Origin: Marispirochaeta sp.
Lineage (GTDB): Bacteria; Spirochaetota; Spirochaetia; JC444; Marispirochaetaceae
NCBI GenBank assembly: GCA_963676835.2
Contig: CAXXFF010000004.1
Coordinates: 480,001-544,000 of the forward strand
DNA: 64,000 nt
Reading direction: 5' to 3'
Positions 51,793 through 61,835 of the stretch are shown one piece after another. Position 1 is the stretch's first letter; every line of letters begins with the position of its first letter. Under the pieces are notes generated by a model. That model was given only the letters and a program-made list of their open reading frames with translations. It did no database searches and had not been told where the DNA came from. A program made the translations under genes and the position numbers.

Positions 51793-52929
51793 ATGGACAT
51801 AAAAGATTTTGTTTCCGGGACTTTCAAAGCGGGATATCAATATAAGTACTTTCTCCCTGAAGCAATAAACCACGAATGGATCTGGACTGATGCGACAATA
51901 AATTCTCTCCTAGAACGGGCATCACTCCGGCTGGGAGAACTTAATTCATTTTCCCGACTGGTTCCTGATACAGATATGTTTATCATTATGCACGTATTCA
52001 AGGAAGCAGTAGTCTCAAGCAGAATAGAGGGAACACAAACAAATATTGAAGAAGCACTTACTGATGAAAAGGAAATAGATCCGGAGAGAAGGAATGACTG
52101 GCTTGAGGTTCATAATTATGTGGAAGCCCTGAATAATGCTATCTCCGAGTTGCAGCGTCTTCCTCTTTCATGCCGTCTTATAAAAAATACTCATCGGATA
52201 CTGCTTTCTCATGGCAGGGGTGACACAAAAACCCCTGGGGAGTTTCGTGTATCACAGAACTGGATAGGCGGTGCGACTCTTGCTGATGCCGTGTTTATAC
52301 CTCCCGGTCATGAAGAACTGCCGGATTTACTGTCTGATTTTGAAACATTTCTTAATAATTCTGAACTTTCCATCCCTCACCTGATCCGGATTGCTATTGC
52401 CCATTATCAGTTTGAAACAATACACCCATTTCTTGACGGTAACGGGAGGATCGGAAGATTACTTATAACCCTTTATCTTGTCTCTTCAGGAATACTTCAT
52501 CAACCGCTCCTTTATCTTTCAGATTTTTTTGAGAAAAACAAAACCCTCTATTATGAGAACCTGACTTTTGTGCGCACAAAGAATGACCTTGTCCAATGGA
52601 TCCGTTTCTTTCTGACCGGGGTGGCAGAAACAGCTGCCCGGTCCTGTGAAACCCTTCAGCACATACTGACACTGAAAGACCGAATAGAAAAAGAGACAAT
52701 TGTCAGCATGGGGAAACGTTCGCCCCAGGGATTGGCGCTGTTTCAGAAGCTGTTTTCCAAACCAGTATTGACAGTACGGGATGCCCGGGAAATGAGCGGA
52801 TTGTCACTGAAAGCGGCAAATAATCTGGTACAGTTATTTGTTGAAAAAGGTATTTTGCATGAGGTCACAGGCTATAAGAGAAACCGTATTTTTATGTTTT
52901 CTGAATATATAAGGCTGTTCAGCGTTTGA
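51793..52929 (+). CDS. Fic family protein (class II-like) with C-terminal HTH
   Basis: Canonical HPFLDGNGRIGR; N-terminal SSRIEG inhibitory motif; C-terminal EVTGYKRNRIF. Confidence 0.92.
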   Translation: MDIKDFVSGTFKAGYQYKYFLPEAINHEWIWTDATINSLLERASLRLGELNSFSRLVPDTDMFIIMHVFKEAVVSSRIEGTQTNIEEALTDEKEIDPERRNDWLEVHNYVEALNNAISELQRLPLSCRLIKNTHRILLSHGRGDTKTPGEFRVSQNWIGGATLADAVFIPPGHEELPDLLSDFETFLNNSELSIPHLIRIAIAHYQFETIHPFLDGNGRIGRLLITLYLVSSGILHQPLLYLSDFFEKNKTLYYENLTFVRTKNDLVQWIRFFLTGVAETAARSCETLQHILTLKDRIEKETIVSMGKRSPQGLALFQKLFSKPVLTVRDAREMSGLSLKAANNLVQLFVEKGILHEVTGYKRNRIFMFSEYIRLFSV

Positions 52930-53029: not shown

Positions 53030-53518
53030 ATGAACTATTCACTTTTTATCGATCTTGACGGTGTTCTGGTTGATTTTGACCAGGGAGTGCTTCAAAGCAC
53101 CGGGAAATATCCCGGGGAGCAGAGCCCGGGCCGGATGTGGTCAATTCTGGCCCGAACCGAGGACTTTTATAACATTCTCGACTGGACACAGGACGGCCGC
53201 AGCCTGTGGGATTATGTACAGAACTTCTCCCCGCGGATTCTTACCGGCCTGCCCCGGGGAAAATGGGCGGAACCCCAGAAACGAAACTGGTGCAGCCGGG
53301 AACTTGGGCCGGACGTTCCGGTAACCACCTGCATGTCCAGGGAAAAAGCCTTAAAAGCAAAAGAGCTCACTCCCGAAGGGCAGATACCGGTACTGGTTGA
53401 CGACCGTATTCGCCTGAAAGAGGCCTGGGAAGAGATGGGAGGCATTTTTATCCATCATACCTCCGCCGTATCCAGTATCGCTGCATTGAGGAACGTTGGC
53501 TTGGCCAATTTATCTTAA
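53030..53518 (+). CDS. HAD-superfamily hydrolase, 5'(3')-nucleotidase-like
   Basis: FIDLDGVLVDF, ILTG, K..W, LVDDR, W..MGG.FI.H. Confidence 0.75.
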   Translation: MNYSLFIDLDGVLVDFDQGVLQSTGKYPGEQSPGRMWSILARTEDFYNILDWTQDGRSLWDYVQNFSPRILTGLPRGKWAEPQKRNWCSRELGPDVPVTTCMSREKALKAKELTPEGQIPVLVDDRIRLKEAWEEMGGIFIHHTSAVSSIAALRNVGLANLS

Positions 53519-53593
53519 TTTTCTCTATTATTGTATGTTTTTTCTTGTCAAAACACTTGTAATAGATAAAAAAGTACTGTAATATGCACCCAT

Positions 53594-53701
53594 TGTCAGA
53601 GAGCTTGCCGGACCAGTTGATCATCAGAAGGCAAGCAGCCGGGGTGCATTCTTATACTTCTAAGCCTGACAAAGCACCTCGTTCCGGCGGGCTCTATGAC
53701 A
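53594..53701 (+). ncRNA. Candidate structured non-coding RNA, family not recognised
   Basis: Promoter TTGTAA-17-TAATAT (53557-53585); closing stem TGTCA.AGAGCTTGCCGGA / TCCGGCGGGCTCT.TGACA; inner stem CGGGGTGC/GCACCTCG; G-U pairs favour the + strand. Confidence 0.6.
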
Positions 53702-53793
53702 TACTTTCCTTAATCTTCCTCACAAACTCCCTTGCCAAGAACAGCTAAACTGCCTATTTTAGTCTCTGTAGATTCTCAAAACAGGGAGTATCC

Positions 53794-55125
53794 ATGGCTG
53801 TAACCAATACTGCAATTCTTATACTCGGGGCGTCCGGAGACCTTGCCAAGCGCAAACTTATCCCCGCCCTTGAACGTCTGTACAGCAAAGAAGAGATAGA
53901 CAACAGCTGCAGGATTATAGGCTCCGGCCGGACGGCCTTTACTGACGAAGAGTTCCGAAATCATTTTGAAATTCCTGAAGACTTCGCGGGGATGCTCCAT
54001 TACCATCAGGGACTGGCTGGAATTCGGGACTACGTATACAGCCTGAAGCAGTTTGACCGGGTAATTATCTTCTTCTCCCTGCCCCCCAGAGTATACGGCA
54101 GTACAGCGGCAGAACTGAGTGTCGAAGGATTCGGCAAAGAGACTACCCTGATTATAGAAAAGCCCTTCGGCTACGATGCAGAAAGTGCCCGGGTACTGAA
54201 CAGAGAACTCCAGAGCTACTTTGATGAACTGCAGATTTTCCGGATCGACCATTACCTTGCCAAGGAAGCGGTACAGAACATTCTGGTATTCCGCTTTGCA
54301 AATGCCCTTTTTCACCCCTTGTGGAACTCAAAATACATCGAGTCAATTCAGATAAATGCCCTGGAAGATATCGGCGTGGAAGACCGGGGAGCCTATTTCG
54401 ATGGTGCCGGCATAATCCGGGATATGATTCAGAATCATCTTATGCAGCTTCTCTGCCTGCTTACTATGGAAGCCCCGGTAACTCTGGAAGCTGAGGAAAT
54501 CCGTAACCAGAAAATGCAGGTACTGAAGGCCCTGGAGGTAAAACGCTGGGCAAAAATGCAGTACCAGGGCTACCACGACGAAAAAGGTGTGCCGGCGGGC
54601 TCCAAAACAGAAACCTATGCTGAAATAGAACTGACCATCAACAACTTCCGCTGGACGGGGATTCCCATCTATGTCCGTACAGGAAAAGCCGTCGGCCGAA
54701 AAGGGACCGAAATAGGCATCCGCTTTAAACAGGGACCGAAACTGCTCTACAACAGCGACGGCGGGGTTCCTCCCAACCAGATTATCTTCAATATTCAGCC
54801 CGACGCGGGGATTCTCATGGACTTTATGACCAAGGAACCGGGAGCTGACGGCAAGCTCAGCTCCACCAGTATGACCTTCTGCTACTCCGACAGCTTCCGC
54901 GATGCGGACATACCCGAAGCCTACCAGAAACTGCTTTTAGATGCCCTGAAGGGCGACCGAACCCTCTTTGTCAGCGCGAAGGAGACGGAACTCTCCTGGG
55001 AGAAGTTTGCTGAGGCCCTGAAAGAGGAGATGCCCGGAAGTTATCAGCCGGGGCAGCTGCCTGAATCAGCCCTGGGCATCGACTGGATAGAGTTTGAGAA
55101 CTACGGGTCTGCCTGCAGATACTAG
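53794..55125 (+). CDS. zwf: Glucose-6-phosphate 1-dehydrogenase
   Basis: GASGDLAKRKL, IEKPFG, RIDHYLAKE, RDMIQNHLMQ, RWTGIPIYVRTGK; candidate own promoter TTGCCA-17-TATTTT (53732-53760). Confidence 0.93.
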   Translation: MAVTNTAILILGASGDLAKRKLIPALERLYSKEEIDNSCRIIGSGRTAFTDEEFRNHFEIPEDFAGMLHYHQGLAGIRDYVYSLKQFDRVIIFFSLPPRVYGSTAAELSVEGFGKETTLIIEKPFGYDAESARVLNRELQSYFDELQIFRIDHYLAKEAVQNILVFRFANALFHPLWNSKYIESIQINALEDIGVEDRGAYFDGAGIIRDMIQNHLMQLLCLLTMEAPVTLEAEEIRNQKMQVLKALEVKRWAKMQYQGYHDEKGVPAGSKTETYAEIELTINNFRWTGIPIYVRTGKAVGRKGTEIGIRFKQGPKLLYNSDGGVPPNQIIFNIQPDAGILMDFMTKEPGADGKLSSTSMTFCYSDSFRDADIPEAYQKLLLDALKGDRTLFVSAKETELSWEKFAEALKEEMPGSYQPGQLPESALGIDWIEFENYGSACRY

Positions 55126-58108: not shown

Positions 58109-58228
58109 TAATAAAGTGTTATGCTGAGCTAAGAGGAAATGGTCGAAACCACTATTTCCTAAACATATGTAACAGTGTAATGATCTACCAAAATGTTGTA
58201 TTATAGAAGGAAATACCAAGGAGGACAC

Positions 58229-58429
58229 ATGCAGACACTAGTTGAGACCATGGTAAAGAAACTGGATCATATGTCTCCTGAACGACTTGCAGAAGTTGAC
58301 GACTTTATTGATTTCCTCATTCAGAGGGACAGGGATACTCAATTATATAAAGATTTTGCTCAAGCCTCGGAATCAGTATTCGAAAAAGTTTGGGACAATG
58401 ATGATGACGCCGTCTACGATTCATTATAG
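58229..58429 (+). CDS. Antitoxin (DUF2281-like)
   Basis: LAEVDDFIDFL...WDNDDDAVYDSL; AGGAGG SD; overlaps the toxin start. Confidence 0.78.
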   Translation: MQTLVETMVKKLDHMSPERLAEVDDFIDFLIQRDRDTQLYKDFAQASESVFEKVWDNDDDAVYDSL

Positions 58430-58769
58430 TTTTGGCGACATAGTGCTGGTAAAATTCCCTTTTACCAACCTTCAGGCTACAAAGCAGCGTCCGGCAGTTA
58501 TTATCAGCAGCCAACTTTATAATATAAACAGACCTGATATTATTCTTATGGCTGTGACCAGCCGTATCCCAACTCCCTTATCTCCGGATGAGGCAAAAAT
58601 TCAAAAATGGAAAGAAGCCGGATTAGTTAAGCCTTCTGTTTTTAAACCACTTATTGCAACAATTGAGAAAAATCAGATTATTAGAACCCTTGGAAATATC
58701 ACATCTGAAGACAAGTCGCGATTAACTGAAATACTTGATACCATTCTCGGAAAAGGTAAAGAGGAATAG
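58404..58769 (+). CDS. PemK/MazF family toxin
   Basis: GDIVLVKFPFTNLQATKQRPAVIIS, MAVTS, GLVKPS; start among ATGs at 58398/58401/58404. Confidence 0.88.
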   Translation: MTPSTIHYSFGDIVLVKFPFTNLQATKQRPAVIISSQLYNINRPDIILMAVTSRIPTPLSPDEAKIQKWKEAGLVKPSVFKPLIATIEKNQIIRTLGNITSEDKSRLTEILDTILGKGKEE

Positions 58770-58794
58770 TATCCCCAGCAATCTCAATACTCCT

Positions 58795-58911
58795 CATTCA
58801 CGTACATGAATATTCACACAACTCCTCTCGATCAAAGACCATAATATTCACGAACACGAATATTCTTGATTTATTCAATATATAAACATATAATATTCAT
58901 GTACACGAATA
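58795..58911 (+). promoter_or_regulatory. hipBA promoter with three palindromic operators (TATTC-N8-GAATA)
   Basis: Sites at 58795 (CATTC variant), 58845 and 58894; TTGATT-17-TATAAT at 58866-58894. Confidence 0.78.
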
Positions 58912-58938
58912 TATTTTTATATTCAGGAGAACAGGATA

Positions 58939-59175
58939 ATGCCCTTGCCGGTACAGTCAGCTGCACAAATAGGAGAACTCATTCGTTTAGAACGGAAGCG
59001 GCAGAAAATTCTGCAGCAAGATCTGGCAGATCTTAGCGGTGTAAGTCTTCATTTTTTGTCTAATCTTGAAAACGGTAAGGAAACAGTTGAGTTTCAGAAG
59101 ATGCTGCTGGTTTTGAACACCCTTGGTATAGAAATGGAATTGAAAACCCGGGTTTCCAATGGCGGCAATATATGA
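58939..59175 (+). CDS. hipB: HipB-like XRE HTH antitoxin
   Basis: QQDLADLSGVSLHFLSNLENGK; ATGA overlap with hipA. Confidence 0.85.
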   Translation: MPLPVQSAAQIGELIRLERKRQKILQQDLADLSGVSLHFLSNLENGKETVEFQKMLLVLNTLGIEMELKTRVSNGGNI

Positions 59176-60404
59176 AGCTTAAAGTACTGTATGAAAGCTA
59201 CCTGGTCGGCATTCTTCATCAGGATACTGGCGGCAGAATCAATTTTGACTACAGCACTGAATGGAAAAACTCACATGAATCCTTTCCCGTTTCACACAGC
59301 CTGCCGCTGTCAGGTAATTTTGAAAAGGGCATAATCGATCATCAATTTTTTGCCAATCTGTTACCAGAAGCGGCTGCCAGAGAAACAATCTGCCGGGGAC
59401 TCGGAATTTCAAGAGATAATGATTTTGAGCTGTTAGCAGCAATAGGCGGGGAATGCGCTGGTGCACTTCAGATTATGCCGGAAGAAACTGATCAGCCGCA
59501 TGATTGCGATTATGAACCTATCAGTGATACTGACCTAAAGAAAGCCCTGGAAACACGCATTCCCTACACCAGACTCTCACCCGGAGGAAAACTCAGACTG
59601 TCTCTCGCCGGGGCACAGGATAAATGGCCGGTTTATGTTGAAGATGGAAAACTCTACTGGCCGATCGGCAGTGCCCCAAGTTCCCATATTCTCAAGTTTA
59701 CAAACCGGGACTTTAAAGGACTTCACTGGAATGAAGCGTACACAAGCTTTTTAGCGCGGAAAACAAGCCTTCCGGTGGTGGATGTAACAATCGGAGACGG
59801 GTATTCCCTGACCAGACGATATGATCGTCTGCCGGATAATACCGGGACAATTTCACGGCTTCATCAGGAAGATTTTTGTCAGGCCCTTGGGTATCCATAC
59901 TATAAGAAATACGAGAGCGACGGAGGTCCGGTTTTCAGCGACTGTATAAATCTTGTCAGAAACATTAGCGTTTCTCCTGCGAAAGACCAACTCAATCTGC
60001 TTCAATGGCAGATACTCAATATTCTTCTGGGCAACGCCGACGGGCATGCAAAAAATCTTTCCATACTCTACAGCAAAACAGGACCCGTTCTTTCACCTTT
60101 TTATGATTTTGTTTGTACAGCGGTTTATCCGGGAATCAGCAGGGATCTTGCTCTATCTGTAGGCGGAAATGCAGATCCGGGACAAATTCGTATTCAGGAT
60201 TGGAACAAACTGGCTGATGAACTTGGAATACGCCCCAGAGTAATTCTGAACAGTTTTGATACTCTCAGTCAGTTGCTGCAGGATTCTCTTACTGCCTATT
60301 ATAATGAATTCGTCGAGATGAACGGCTCACATCCTGTACTTGAGTGGATAAATCAGGTAATTAATAAACGGATCAGGCGGGTGCGAACTCTATTGAAAGA
60401 GTAA
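59172..60404 (+). CDS. hipA: HipA family Ser/Thr kinase toxin
   Basis: FFANLLPE, SLAGAQDK, HILK, RYDR, HQEDFCQALG, GNADGHAKN, LSPFYD. Confidence 0.93.
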   Translation: MKLKVLYESYLVGILHQDTGGRINFDYSTEWKNSHESFPVSHSLPLSGNFEKGIIDHQFFANLLPEAAARETICRGLGISRDNDFELLAAIGGECAGALQIMPEETDQPHDCDYEPISDTDLKKALETRIPYTRLSPGGKLRLSLAGAQDKWPVYVEDGKLYWPIGSAPSSHILKFTNRDFKGLHWNEAYTSFLARKTSLPVVDVTIGDGYSLTRRYDRLPDNTGTISRLHQEDFCQALGYPYYKKYESDGGPVFSDCINLVRNISVSPAKDQLNLLQWQILNILLGNADGHAKNLSILYSKTGPVLSPFYDFVCTAVYPGISRDLALSVGGNADPGQIRIQDWNKLADELGIRPRVILNSFDTLSQLLQDSLTAYYNEFVEMNGSHPVLEWINQVINKRIRRVRTLLKE

Positions 60405-60405
60405 A

Positions 60406-60533
60406 GGTGGTTTCGACACTTCGACCGCTACGGCTTCGCTCAGCACCAGTCCGCTCAGTGCGGGCATTTCGACCAGCTCAATACGGTGATAATCTGCCTG
60501 ACAGGTGGTTTCGACTTCGCTCAACCACCGCAT
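60406..60533. repeat. Direct repeat copy 2 (nested TTCGAC..GCTCA units)
   Basis: Near-identical to 57964-58108 but 17 nt shorter (one internal GCTCAATA unit missing). Confidence 0.88.
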
Positions 60534-60570
60534 CTATGTTGCAGGATGCTGAGAGGTGACCAGAATATGA

Positions 60571-60831
60571 TCATCCATTCTTTAGCTTTCGCAGCGTATT
60601 CTCTGCAGTCTTCTTTGCATGTTCTATAAGACTGGCTGTATTTTCGCCAGAGATATAATCTCCTCTTTCGATCCCTTCTATCAAATCCCGTTCTTCCTCA
60701 TCCAGAGGTTCAAAATGTTTTGCTTCAAGCTTACCTTTCAGTTTTGTTTTGTATGTTTCCGAGAGATCAGTATCCGATGAGTACTTTCCAAAAATCTGTT
60801 TTCCAAGCTCAAAGGGTGTCTTTTTGTTCAT
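60571..60831 (-). CDS. Small protein, apparent chimera of two antitoxin fragments
   Basis: KTPFELGKQIFGKYSS..DLS.TYK..LK.KL.AKH joined to LDEEERDLIEGIERG...AKKTAENTLRK. Confidence 0.5.
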   Translation of the reverse strand: MNKKTPFELGKQIFGKYSSDTDLSETYKTKLKGKLEAKHFEPLDEEERDLIEGIERGDYISGENTASLIEHAKKTAENTLRKLKNG

Positions 60832-60837
60832 AAATTC

Positions 60838-61098
60838 CTACTCATAATGCGTCCACATCCTTAAGATTTTCACTGCCTTTTCTTCTTCCACCACCTGATA
60901 GACAATCCTGTGCTGGATATTAATACGGCGGGAAAAAGCTCCGGTTAAATCTCCCAGAAGCTTTTCATAGGGTGGGTACTCTATAAAAGGATCGTTTTCC
61001 AGGATTTCAAGGATCTCCTCAGCCTTTTTTTTAAGGTTGGACGAAGTTAGTTTCTTTGCATCTTTCTGAGCCTGTTTTGTGAAAAAAAGCCTATACAC
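60838..61098 (-). CDS. yoeB: Txe/YoeB family toxin
   Basis: PPYEKLLGDLTGAFSRRINIQHRIVY...MWTHYE. Confidence 0.92.
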   Translation of the reverse strand: MYRLFFTKQAQKDAKKLTSSNLKKKAEEILEILENDPFIEYPPYEKLLGDLTGAFSRRINIQHRIVYQVVEEEKAVKILRMWTHYE

Positions 61099-61340
61099 TA
61101 CCAGTCCAGATTTTCATCAAGTTCTGACGTCGGAGTATTGATTCCTTCCAAAATCGATTCTCTCATCCCCGGAATGGAGGTGAGAAACAGGGTCGCCTGG
61201 ATACTGCGCCAATCCTCTTCTCCTACCAGAACAGCAGAAGAATCTTTTCCAGTAATTTCAACCGGTTCGTGGGTTTCGTTAACCCGCTGCAGGATTTTGT
61301 ATAGATCCTTTCTCGCATTGGTTACATTGATACTGCTCAT
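61098..61340 (-). CDS. yefM: Phd/YefM family antitoxin
   Basis: NARKDLYKI..VNETHEPV.ITGK..AVLV.EEDWRSIQATLFL.SIPGMRESI. Confidence 0.92.
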   Translation of the reverse strand: MSSINVTNARKDLYKILQRVNETHEPVEITGKDSSAVLVGEEDWRSIQATLFLTSIPGMRESILEGINTPTSELDENLDW

Positions 61341-61348
61341 GGCACCTC

Positions 61349-61366
61349 CGTACGGTATAGCGTACG
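61349..61366. promoter_or_regulatory. Putative YefM-YoeB operator
   Basis: Two CGTACG palindromes 12 bp apart (61349, 61361), like the paired TGTACA cores of E. coli yefM-yoeB. Confidence 0.65.
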
Positions 61367-61420
61367 TAACAATACATCTTCATGGCATATAAGTCCAGTC
61401 TGCTGGAAGGTGGTTTCTGG

Positions 61421-61444
61421 TTATTCTTCAGCCTGCTTTTTCAT
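61421..61444 (-). pseudogene. Possible 5' stub of a HEPN gene (MKKQAEE*)
   Basis: ATG overlaps the MNT 3' end as in MNT-HEPN operons; stop after 7 codons. Confidence 0.35.
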
Positions 61445-61787
61445 ATAAGACTTTGCCGGTTTCGTGAATTTCCCTTTGAAATGAATTCATATTGTTCTTA
61501 ACTTTTTCATACTGCGGGATTGTGTATACTAACAAATCGATTGCGAACTTATTGTTTATCTCTCTTAGAACCCGCCGGACAATGAGTTTCTTTTGCTGCC
61601 ACTCATCATAGGTTCCGGGATCATCATAGTCTTCCAACACAACCAGAAGATCTATGTCACTATCCGGTGTGACCTGTCCTTTTGCATATGAACCAAAAAG
61701 CAAAACTTTACGAATTGGTAAAGATAAGAGACTGGAGACAATACTATTTAAAACAGATTCTATTTTCCGCTCTTCTTCAGTTACCAT
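61428..61787 (-). CDS. Minimal nucleotidyltransferase (MNT) domain protein
   Basis: LFGSYAKG...DSDIDLLVV, IDLLVYT, GKVLYE; start assigned at MVTEE. Confidence 0.88.
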   Translation of the reverse strand: MVTEEERKIESVLNSIVSSLLSLPIRKVLLFGSYAKGQVTPDSDIDLLVVLEDYDDPGTYDEWQQKKLIVRRVLREINNKFAIDLLVYTIPQYEKVKNNMNSFQREIHETGKVLYEKAG

Positions 61788-61835
61788 AGCTAAATAGTAG
61801 TCCACCTCAGGCAATATGTCGAGAGTATTACTTCC

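Follow-up and report, generated by a model that had tools for sequence, protein, structure and literature searches.

Directly upstream of zwf, the gene for glucose-6-phosphate dehydrogenase, lies a non-coding element of 106 nt with a stem-bubble-stem architecture, located at positions 53595-53700 on the forward strand of the 64,000-nucleotide stretch of Marispirochaeta sp. DNA that was analysed (hereafter, the window). The sequence comparisons support the interpretation of this element as a novel structured unit of about 106 nt, on the forward strand, with its own conserved predicted promoter and without a match in Rfam. The initial annotation had described a structured RNA with two mutually exclusive folds at this place. 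We found that the element is real and that the two-state switch is not.

Distribution and genomic setting

The candidate proved to have conserved homologs. In a DNA search of 41 genomes, convincing matches were obtained in the genome that carries the window (G000) and in all five congeners, and the other matches were short, with E values above 0.002. The element is present as a single copy per genome, and in all six genomes of the genus zwf, in the same orientation, is the gene immediately downstream. When a covariance model of the element (R1) was applied to 151 genomes of the class, it returned the six genus members and three weak matches, all three inside coding sequence, and no element was found with a covariance model upstream of zwf at 24 other loci. 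R1 also gave 0 of 151 matches in a sample of the phylum, where 24 candidates were scored per genome in a set without a positive control. A metagenome scan yielded two matches, one identical to the copy of the congener G005 and one that receives no score from the model. A viral scan gave two pattern matches, both inside one reading frame, and blastn against plasmid and phage collections gave no match to the element.

Pattern searches were also carried out. An exact 18-base scan of genome contigs returned at least 118 stretches, and those listed included one true homolog (L049) and three short Nocardia hairpins; the exact 18-base pattern is too unspecific for a homolog search. A loose two-arm pattern matched 96 of 401 genomes, and the best of the 30 loci scored by the model reached 13.8 bits (E 0.25). 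Within what was searched, these results indicate that the element is restricted to the genus. In G006, the only other member of the family, it is absent both at zwf and genome-wide, in an assembly that is 81% complete and also without RNase P RNA. No description of the element was found in the literature, although it may be listed in the supplement of PMC11109978, and the main text of PMC8632094 has no mention of zwf.

The genes upstream of the element vary by inspection (hlyIII, a HAD-like ORF or a response-regulator-like gene), and the element stays together with an A/T-rich box. On the other side, zwf (53794-55125, forward strand; Pfam G6PD_N and G6PD_C) adjoins the element in all six homologous loci. 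The upstream neighbor in the window is a 162-codon ORF (53030-53518) that has no Pfam match at E 0.01 and occurs in three of the six genomes; it contains a DLDGV motif of the kind typical of HAD phosphatases. Of the six genomes, only G000 has a Fic-domain gene (51793-52929) that separates hlyIII from the HAD-like ORF. Downstream of zwf, a cluster at 58193-61814 consists of short paired genes that look, on visual inspection, like toxin-antitoxin modules (PemK/MazF-like, HipBA-like and Txe/YefM-like), together with a nucleotidyltransferase.

Fold, conservation and strand

The structural examination confirmed that the two ends of the element pair with each other, forming a closing stem of 18 pairs with one G·A mismatch (53594-53612 with 53683-53701). 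Within the 106 nt, its 5' strand (53595-53612) comprises 4 bp, the mismatch and 13 bp with tandem U-G pairs, and its 3' strand (53683-53700) is followed by a pyrimidine-rich tail. The 5' bubble strand of about 28 nt (53613-53639) keeps its length and is mostly free in sequence apart from an invariant AG near its start. It is followed by an apical arm (53640-53681) that consists of the inner 8-bp stem of the initial annotation, found as described at 53640-53647 and 53674-53681, and a variable loop of 25-26 nt. The CTTA/TAAG hairpin that had been placed with this stem exists in G000 and is not found in the other homologs. Folding of the 5' bubble gave only weak, non-conserved hairpins, and a pairing of 4-5 bp between bubble and loop is possible in four or five of the six homologs, by an uncontrolled count that we leave out of the argument.

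Comparison of the six homologs, which are 105-107 nt in length and differ by one-base indels in the alignment, revealed that conservation is very unevenly distributed. In the closing stem, 33 of 36 columns are invariant, and in the inner stem 10 of 16, compared with 7 of 28 in the 5' bubble and none of 26 in the apical loop, the length of which is kept. As a comparison for drift, 12 of 122 four-fold sites of zwf are invariant. This distribution indicates that purifying selection is confined to the helices and that the loops drift freely in sequence while keeping their length. Given what is generally expected of mRNA-pairing and ligand-binding RNAs, the retention of helices and lengths together with drifting loop sequence suggests an RNA that is read by its shape rather than one that pairs with targets or forms a ligand pocket.

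The same comparison bears on the possibility that the RNA acts in trans by base pairing with mRNAs through its bubble or loop. The element has the size of an sRNA, a promoter-like site and long accessible single strands, all of which would suit such a role. However, the accessible strands are precisely the least conserved parts, so that the homologs share no seed, and none of the zwf, pyk, acnA and hlyIII start regions showed consistent pairing with the RNA. The hint of pairing with hlyIII falls at different places in different genomes and ranks 988th of 3476 in G000. We consider a trans-acting, base-pairing RNA quite unlikely.

All 17 pairs of the closing stem are kept in all six sequences, 16 of them without any variation and one changing from A-U to G-U; an invariant closing stem is by itself no argument for structure. 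In the inner stem, two pairs are changed on both sides and one on one side, with a single broken cell among 48. When both stems are taken together as a 25-pair structure, 149 of 150 cells pair, compared with 33-44% in slid controls. The covariation score was reached by 5 of 500 shuffles, and the count of double-changed pairs by 90 of 500. The set consists of six related sequences that by alignment represent about three lineages, and the covariation evidence for the predicted fold is modest.

The G-U pairs had been said to work only on the forward strand, and the pattern of change agrees with this: the closing stem varies only at its mismatch position and by a change from A-U to G-U, the latter being neutral only in an RNA read from the forward strand. 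Folding energy does not fix the strand. The fold of this part of the window on the forward strand had z values of -3.2 and -4.1, with none of 200 shuffles as good, against -1.1 for the minus strand. For the bare elements of 105-107 nt, the z values were -2.8 to -5.0 on the sense strand and -1.8 to -5.3 on the minus strand, and in G005 the minus strand is the lower of the two in folding energy. Since the minus strand folds too, our assignment of the strand rests on the promoter and the G-U pattern and not on energy.

The foldable minus strand, the near-perfect 18-bp inverted arms and their constant spacing are also what would be seen if the element functioned as DNA, as two inverted protein sites at a fixed distance, or were what is left, in fixed form, of a mobile element bounded by terminal inverted repeats; its presence upstream of zwf in one genus only points in the same direction. 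Against this, the asymmetry of the arms is kept exactly as G-U pairs on the forward strand, the inner stem covaries, and in the alignment the arms vary at their outermost bases. The single copy per genome, the lack of a plasmid or phage match and the location of the viral pattern matches inside a reading frame likewise argue against a mobile origin. A function at the DNA level or a mobile remnant is, in our judgement, decidedly improbable.

Predicted promoters, predicted transcript ends and the relation to zwf

The predicted sigma70-type promoter P1 (53557-53585, forward strand) has the sequence that the initial annotation had given, with TTGTAA at 53557-53562, a 17-nt spacer and TAATAT at 53580-53585, and a transcription start near 53592 is plausible; the 5' end of the RNA may accordingly lie at about 53592. 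In the window, P1 matches 8 of 12 consensus bases and is unlisted by our promoter scan, the cut-off of which was 9 of 12. Its pattern, TTG and TA..T separated by 17 nt, ends 7-9 nt before the stem in all six homologs, with 8-9 of 12 consensus matches. A second predicted promoter, P2 (53732-53760, forward strand), had been proposed to serve zwf separately. It is listed by the scan, and in all six homologs it is conserved with a 17-nt spacer, 19-31 nt after the stem.

Further upstream, an A/T-rich box of 11 bp (53519-53529, forward strand) is invariant in the six homologs despite the differing upstream gene. A 13-bp form of this box has one exact copy in G000 and 15 sites with one mismatch. We suggest that it is likely an UP-like element or an activator site.

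Two differences in length were noticed in this region. G000 and G002 share a 24-bp insertion in the P1 region (window 53550-53590; L002) that looks like a degenerate duplication, and in the alignment the -10 position of the relatives is now the -35 of the predicted promoter. G002 alone has some 150 additional bases that separate the zwf promoter-like site from the start codon (L002:1720-1880), possibly as a mobile-element remnant.

In the tail after the closing stem, 3-5 of the first 8 nt are T, and there is no conserved U-run among the six homologs. Since they also have no conserved terminator at this position, transcripts from P1 may run into zwf. The main rival to a stand-alone RNA is a structured 5' leader of a long zwf transcript that starts at P1. 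Such a leader fits the lack of a clear terminator and of a conserved U-run, the constant position of the element just before a co-oriented zwf in the six genomes, and a transcription start at the foot of the stem, as in a 5'-protecting hairpin. On the contrary, zwf has its own promoter-like site in all six genomes, and its orthologs at 24 other loci are without the element. A simple stabiliser would need neither an inner covarying stem nor fixed loop lengths. In addition, the RNA does not pair with the zwf ribosome-binding region (0.00-0.02 expected pairs in the six homologs), and the distance from the element to the zwf start codon varies from 79 to 243 nt. We regard a zwf leader as possible but somewhat unlikely. 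In such a leader, the terminal helix would either make the mRNA more stable or serve as the cleavage site of a double-strand RNase, and the zwf mRNAs from P1 and P2 would then differ in stability.

The two-fold switch of the initial annotation relied on an alternative helix between GCTTGCC and GGCAAGC. The two words can indeed pair in G000, with GGCAAGC at 53630-53636 and GCTTGCC at 53603-53609, one base off its earlier position. Only for nascent chains no longer than about 95 nt does this helix give the best fold; its presence in G000 and this preference speak for a riboswitch or two-state switch controlling zwf. However, the full 7 bp are complete in G000 only, one of the six homologs, and 4 bp are left in the closest relative, G002. 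In the full RNA, the alternative helix has a pair probability of about 6e-9 and is 12 kcal/mol worse than the main fold. A conserved expression platform is absent, and there is no Rfam riboswitch match. In a riboswitch, the junction nucleotides that form the ligand pocket are expected to be conserved, and here the junction and loop nucleotides are the variable part. A conserved switch was thus rejected on the grounds of the single complete helix, its cost of 12 kcal/mol, the missing pairing with the ribosome-binding region and the variable distance to the start codon, and any control of zwf through the alternative helix is most improbable.

Known RNA classes and comparison with 6S RNA

The novelty claimed for the element held up in Rfam: in E-value mode, neither the region around the element nor the six homologous loci gave a match over it. 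A resemblance to SRP RNA had been pointed out and doubted. The element is similar in length to the bacterial small SRP RNA (RF00169) and carries a few similar words, which exist in G000 and are not conserved in the other homologs. It lacks the conserved helix 8 of SRP RNA. RF00169 has no match at the element, and the true SRP RNA was found elsewhere in all five genomes tested (in G000 at G000:C2:600810-600908). RNase P RNA lies elsewhere in four of five genomes and tmRNA elsewhere in G000; we rejected a fragment of SRP RNA, RNase P RNA, tmRNA or tRNA, since those genes lie elsewhere. A Y RNA was rejected as well, because the Ro60/Rsr (TROVE) family PF05731 was found in none of five genomes, with two control genomes positive.

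Retron msr-msd regions have terminal inverted repeats, an invariant AG after the 5' arm and a hairpin against the 3' arm, and the element resembles them in its paired ends, the invariant AG past the 5' arm and the hairpin abutting the 3' arm. In contrast, its hairpin has only 8 bp, and a reverse transcriptase is neither adjacent nor common to the genus: RVT_1 occurs in four of five genomes and not in G005. The reverse transcriptases that could be read out (five of six tried) showed none of the expected retron motifs, and four were of the YADD type. A retron was rejected on these grounds. Apart from this, G003 has 24 reverse-transcriptase matches, many of them in identical copies, and the one that was read out is of the YADD type; this suggests a group II intron expansion. 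A small protein gene was also rejected, since the 54-codon frame of G000 has no counterpart and the other homologs give unrelated short frames. Finally, an attC site was rejected, because the attC-like repeats of G000 look different and are multi-copy. These imperfect inverted repeats are intergenic, 100-110 bp long and present in at least seven copies (G000:C3:7680-25853 and G000:C4:336323-339948), and they resemble the attC sites of integron cassette arrays.

We then compared the element with 6S RNA. With a model built from 23 spirochaete 6S RNAs (R2), 6S RNA was detected in 72 of the 151 class genomes, and with RF00013 in 61 of the 151 (E cut-offs 0.05 and 0.1); neither detected any in the seven family genomes. 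The Rfam model misses some spirochaete 6S RNAs, as seen from 61 versus 72 genomes. For 6S RNA in G000, nhmmer with --max gave no match better than E 0.14. A shape-only search, the filter of which kept 25 of 30 known 6S RNAs, produced 54 candidates in G000, and those listed were mostly coding or repeat sequence.

Among the 30 6S loci that were fetched, about 22 have a zapA-like gene ahead of the 6S RNA and about 14 a PilZN3-type gene behind it, as judged by eye from the N-termini. Both genes were confirmed by Pfam in G000. In all six family genomes inspected (G005 left out), the gap between zapA and PilZN3 is only about 40-105 nt, which leaves no room for a 180-nt 6S RNA. Based on these comparisons, the canonical 6S gene appears to have been lost family-wide. 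The shrunken gap carries a promoter-like site (G000:C3:352202-352550, L183; L216-L220).

The initial annotation had called the element short and asymmetric for 6S RNA, and it does not score as such: RF00013 gave 0 of 5 genomes at E<=1 and no match on the loci, and R2 with filters off gave no match above 7 bits (E 1.7) over the element. Nevertheless, it resembles the spirochaete form of 6S RNA (loci L184-L213) in several respects. Both are single-copy and non-coding, in both the 5' and 3' ends form a closing stem, beyond which come unpaired nucleotides and then an inner stem, and both have adjacent U-G pairs in the closing stem and then a pyrimidine tail. Judged by its closing stem, with 17 pairs in all six homologs, the element is 6S-like. 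The differences are equally clear. First, the element is about 70 nt shorter, with 106 nt compared with about 175-190 nt in spirochaete 6S RNA. Second, its bubble is one-sided: about 28 unpaired nt lie on the 5' side compared with 1 nt on the 3' side, and neither a 3' bubble strand nor a hairpin is present there; thus the 3' bubble strand with the -10-like element of 6S RNA is missing. Third, the apical arm has only 8 bp, whereas 6S RNA has a long apical arm and forms a rod of about 160-200 nt. Finally, the conserved blocks of spirochaete 6S RNA are lacking, and the element sits at zwf instead of zapA. When a product RNA was simulated from an assumed 14-nt block and a guessed start site, a collapse-type helix formed in one of the six homologs. 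Among the 79 of 151 class genomes without detectable 6S RNA, only the six genus members have the element. A missing 6S RNA therefore does not call for an element of this kind, since the other class genomes without 6S showed none.

Short or lineage-specific RNAs that bind RNA polymerase have been described. According to PMC8876501, truncations of B. subtilis 6S-1 RNA to 78 and 82 nt are still bound by sigmaA-RNA polymerase, although about tenfold less tightly, and serve as templates for product RNAs. PMC11077062 describes CoRP, a genus-restricted and syntenic RNA-polymerase-binding RNA of corynebacteria, where no 6S RNA was found, as well as scr0792, an RNA of about 85 nt associated with RNA polymerase in Streptomyces, and names the Aquifex 6S RNA of about 160 nt as one of the shortest known. 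The element shares with CoRP its restriction to one genus, its synteny and its occurrence in a lineage with no 6S RNA detected, and with scr0792 its small size. The comparison covers distribution and size; CoRP has 516 nt, and binding to RNA polymerase was shown for CoRP and scr0792 and is only proposed for the element.

Taken together, we tentatively favor a stable, stand-alone small RNA that would act by its shape through binding of a protein. With P1 at the foot of the terminal helix and a separate predicted P2 serving zwf, the arrangement agrees with an independent, stable RNA. Transcription from the predicted P1 would begin at the base of the stem, and the two ends of the transcript would then zip into a helix of 17-18 bp that protects both of them. 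Since there is no good U-run, the 3' end would arise either from weak termination or from trimming as far as the stem. The bubble and loop, fixed in length and free in sequence, may serve as spacers; as only their length is kept, the partner would read the geometry and the invariant helix and not the loop sequence. The leading candidate for this partner is RNA polymerase, with the element as a stand-in for the undetected 6S RNA, an identification that we offer as speculative. A fuller scenario, in which the family deleted 6S RNA from the zapA slot and the genus uses the 106-nt RNA as a natural minimal promoter mimic, whose closing stem, one-sided bubble and short inner stem would bind RNA polymerase in the absence of a -35-like arm, is unlikely in its entirety.

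As an RNA candidate, the element is well delimited and absent from the catalogued families; its structure is clearly under selection, and its ends and promoter are predicted. Its range of one genus limits its general weight. About half of the sampled spirochaete genomes are without detectable 6S RNA. If the zwf leader were true, it would represent a new kind of control on the entry to the pentose-phosphate pathway. If binding to RNA polymerase were true, the element would show a minimal natural promoter mimic, and lineages could replace 6S RNA. Such a minimal mimic would be far shorter than the Aquifex 6S RNA and would mean that the function of 6S RNA was re-evolved or radically cut down in this genus.
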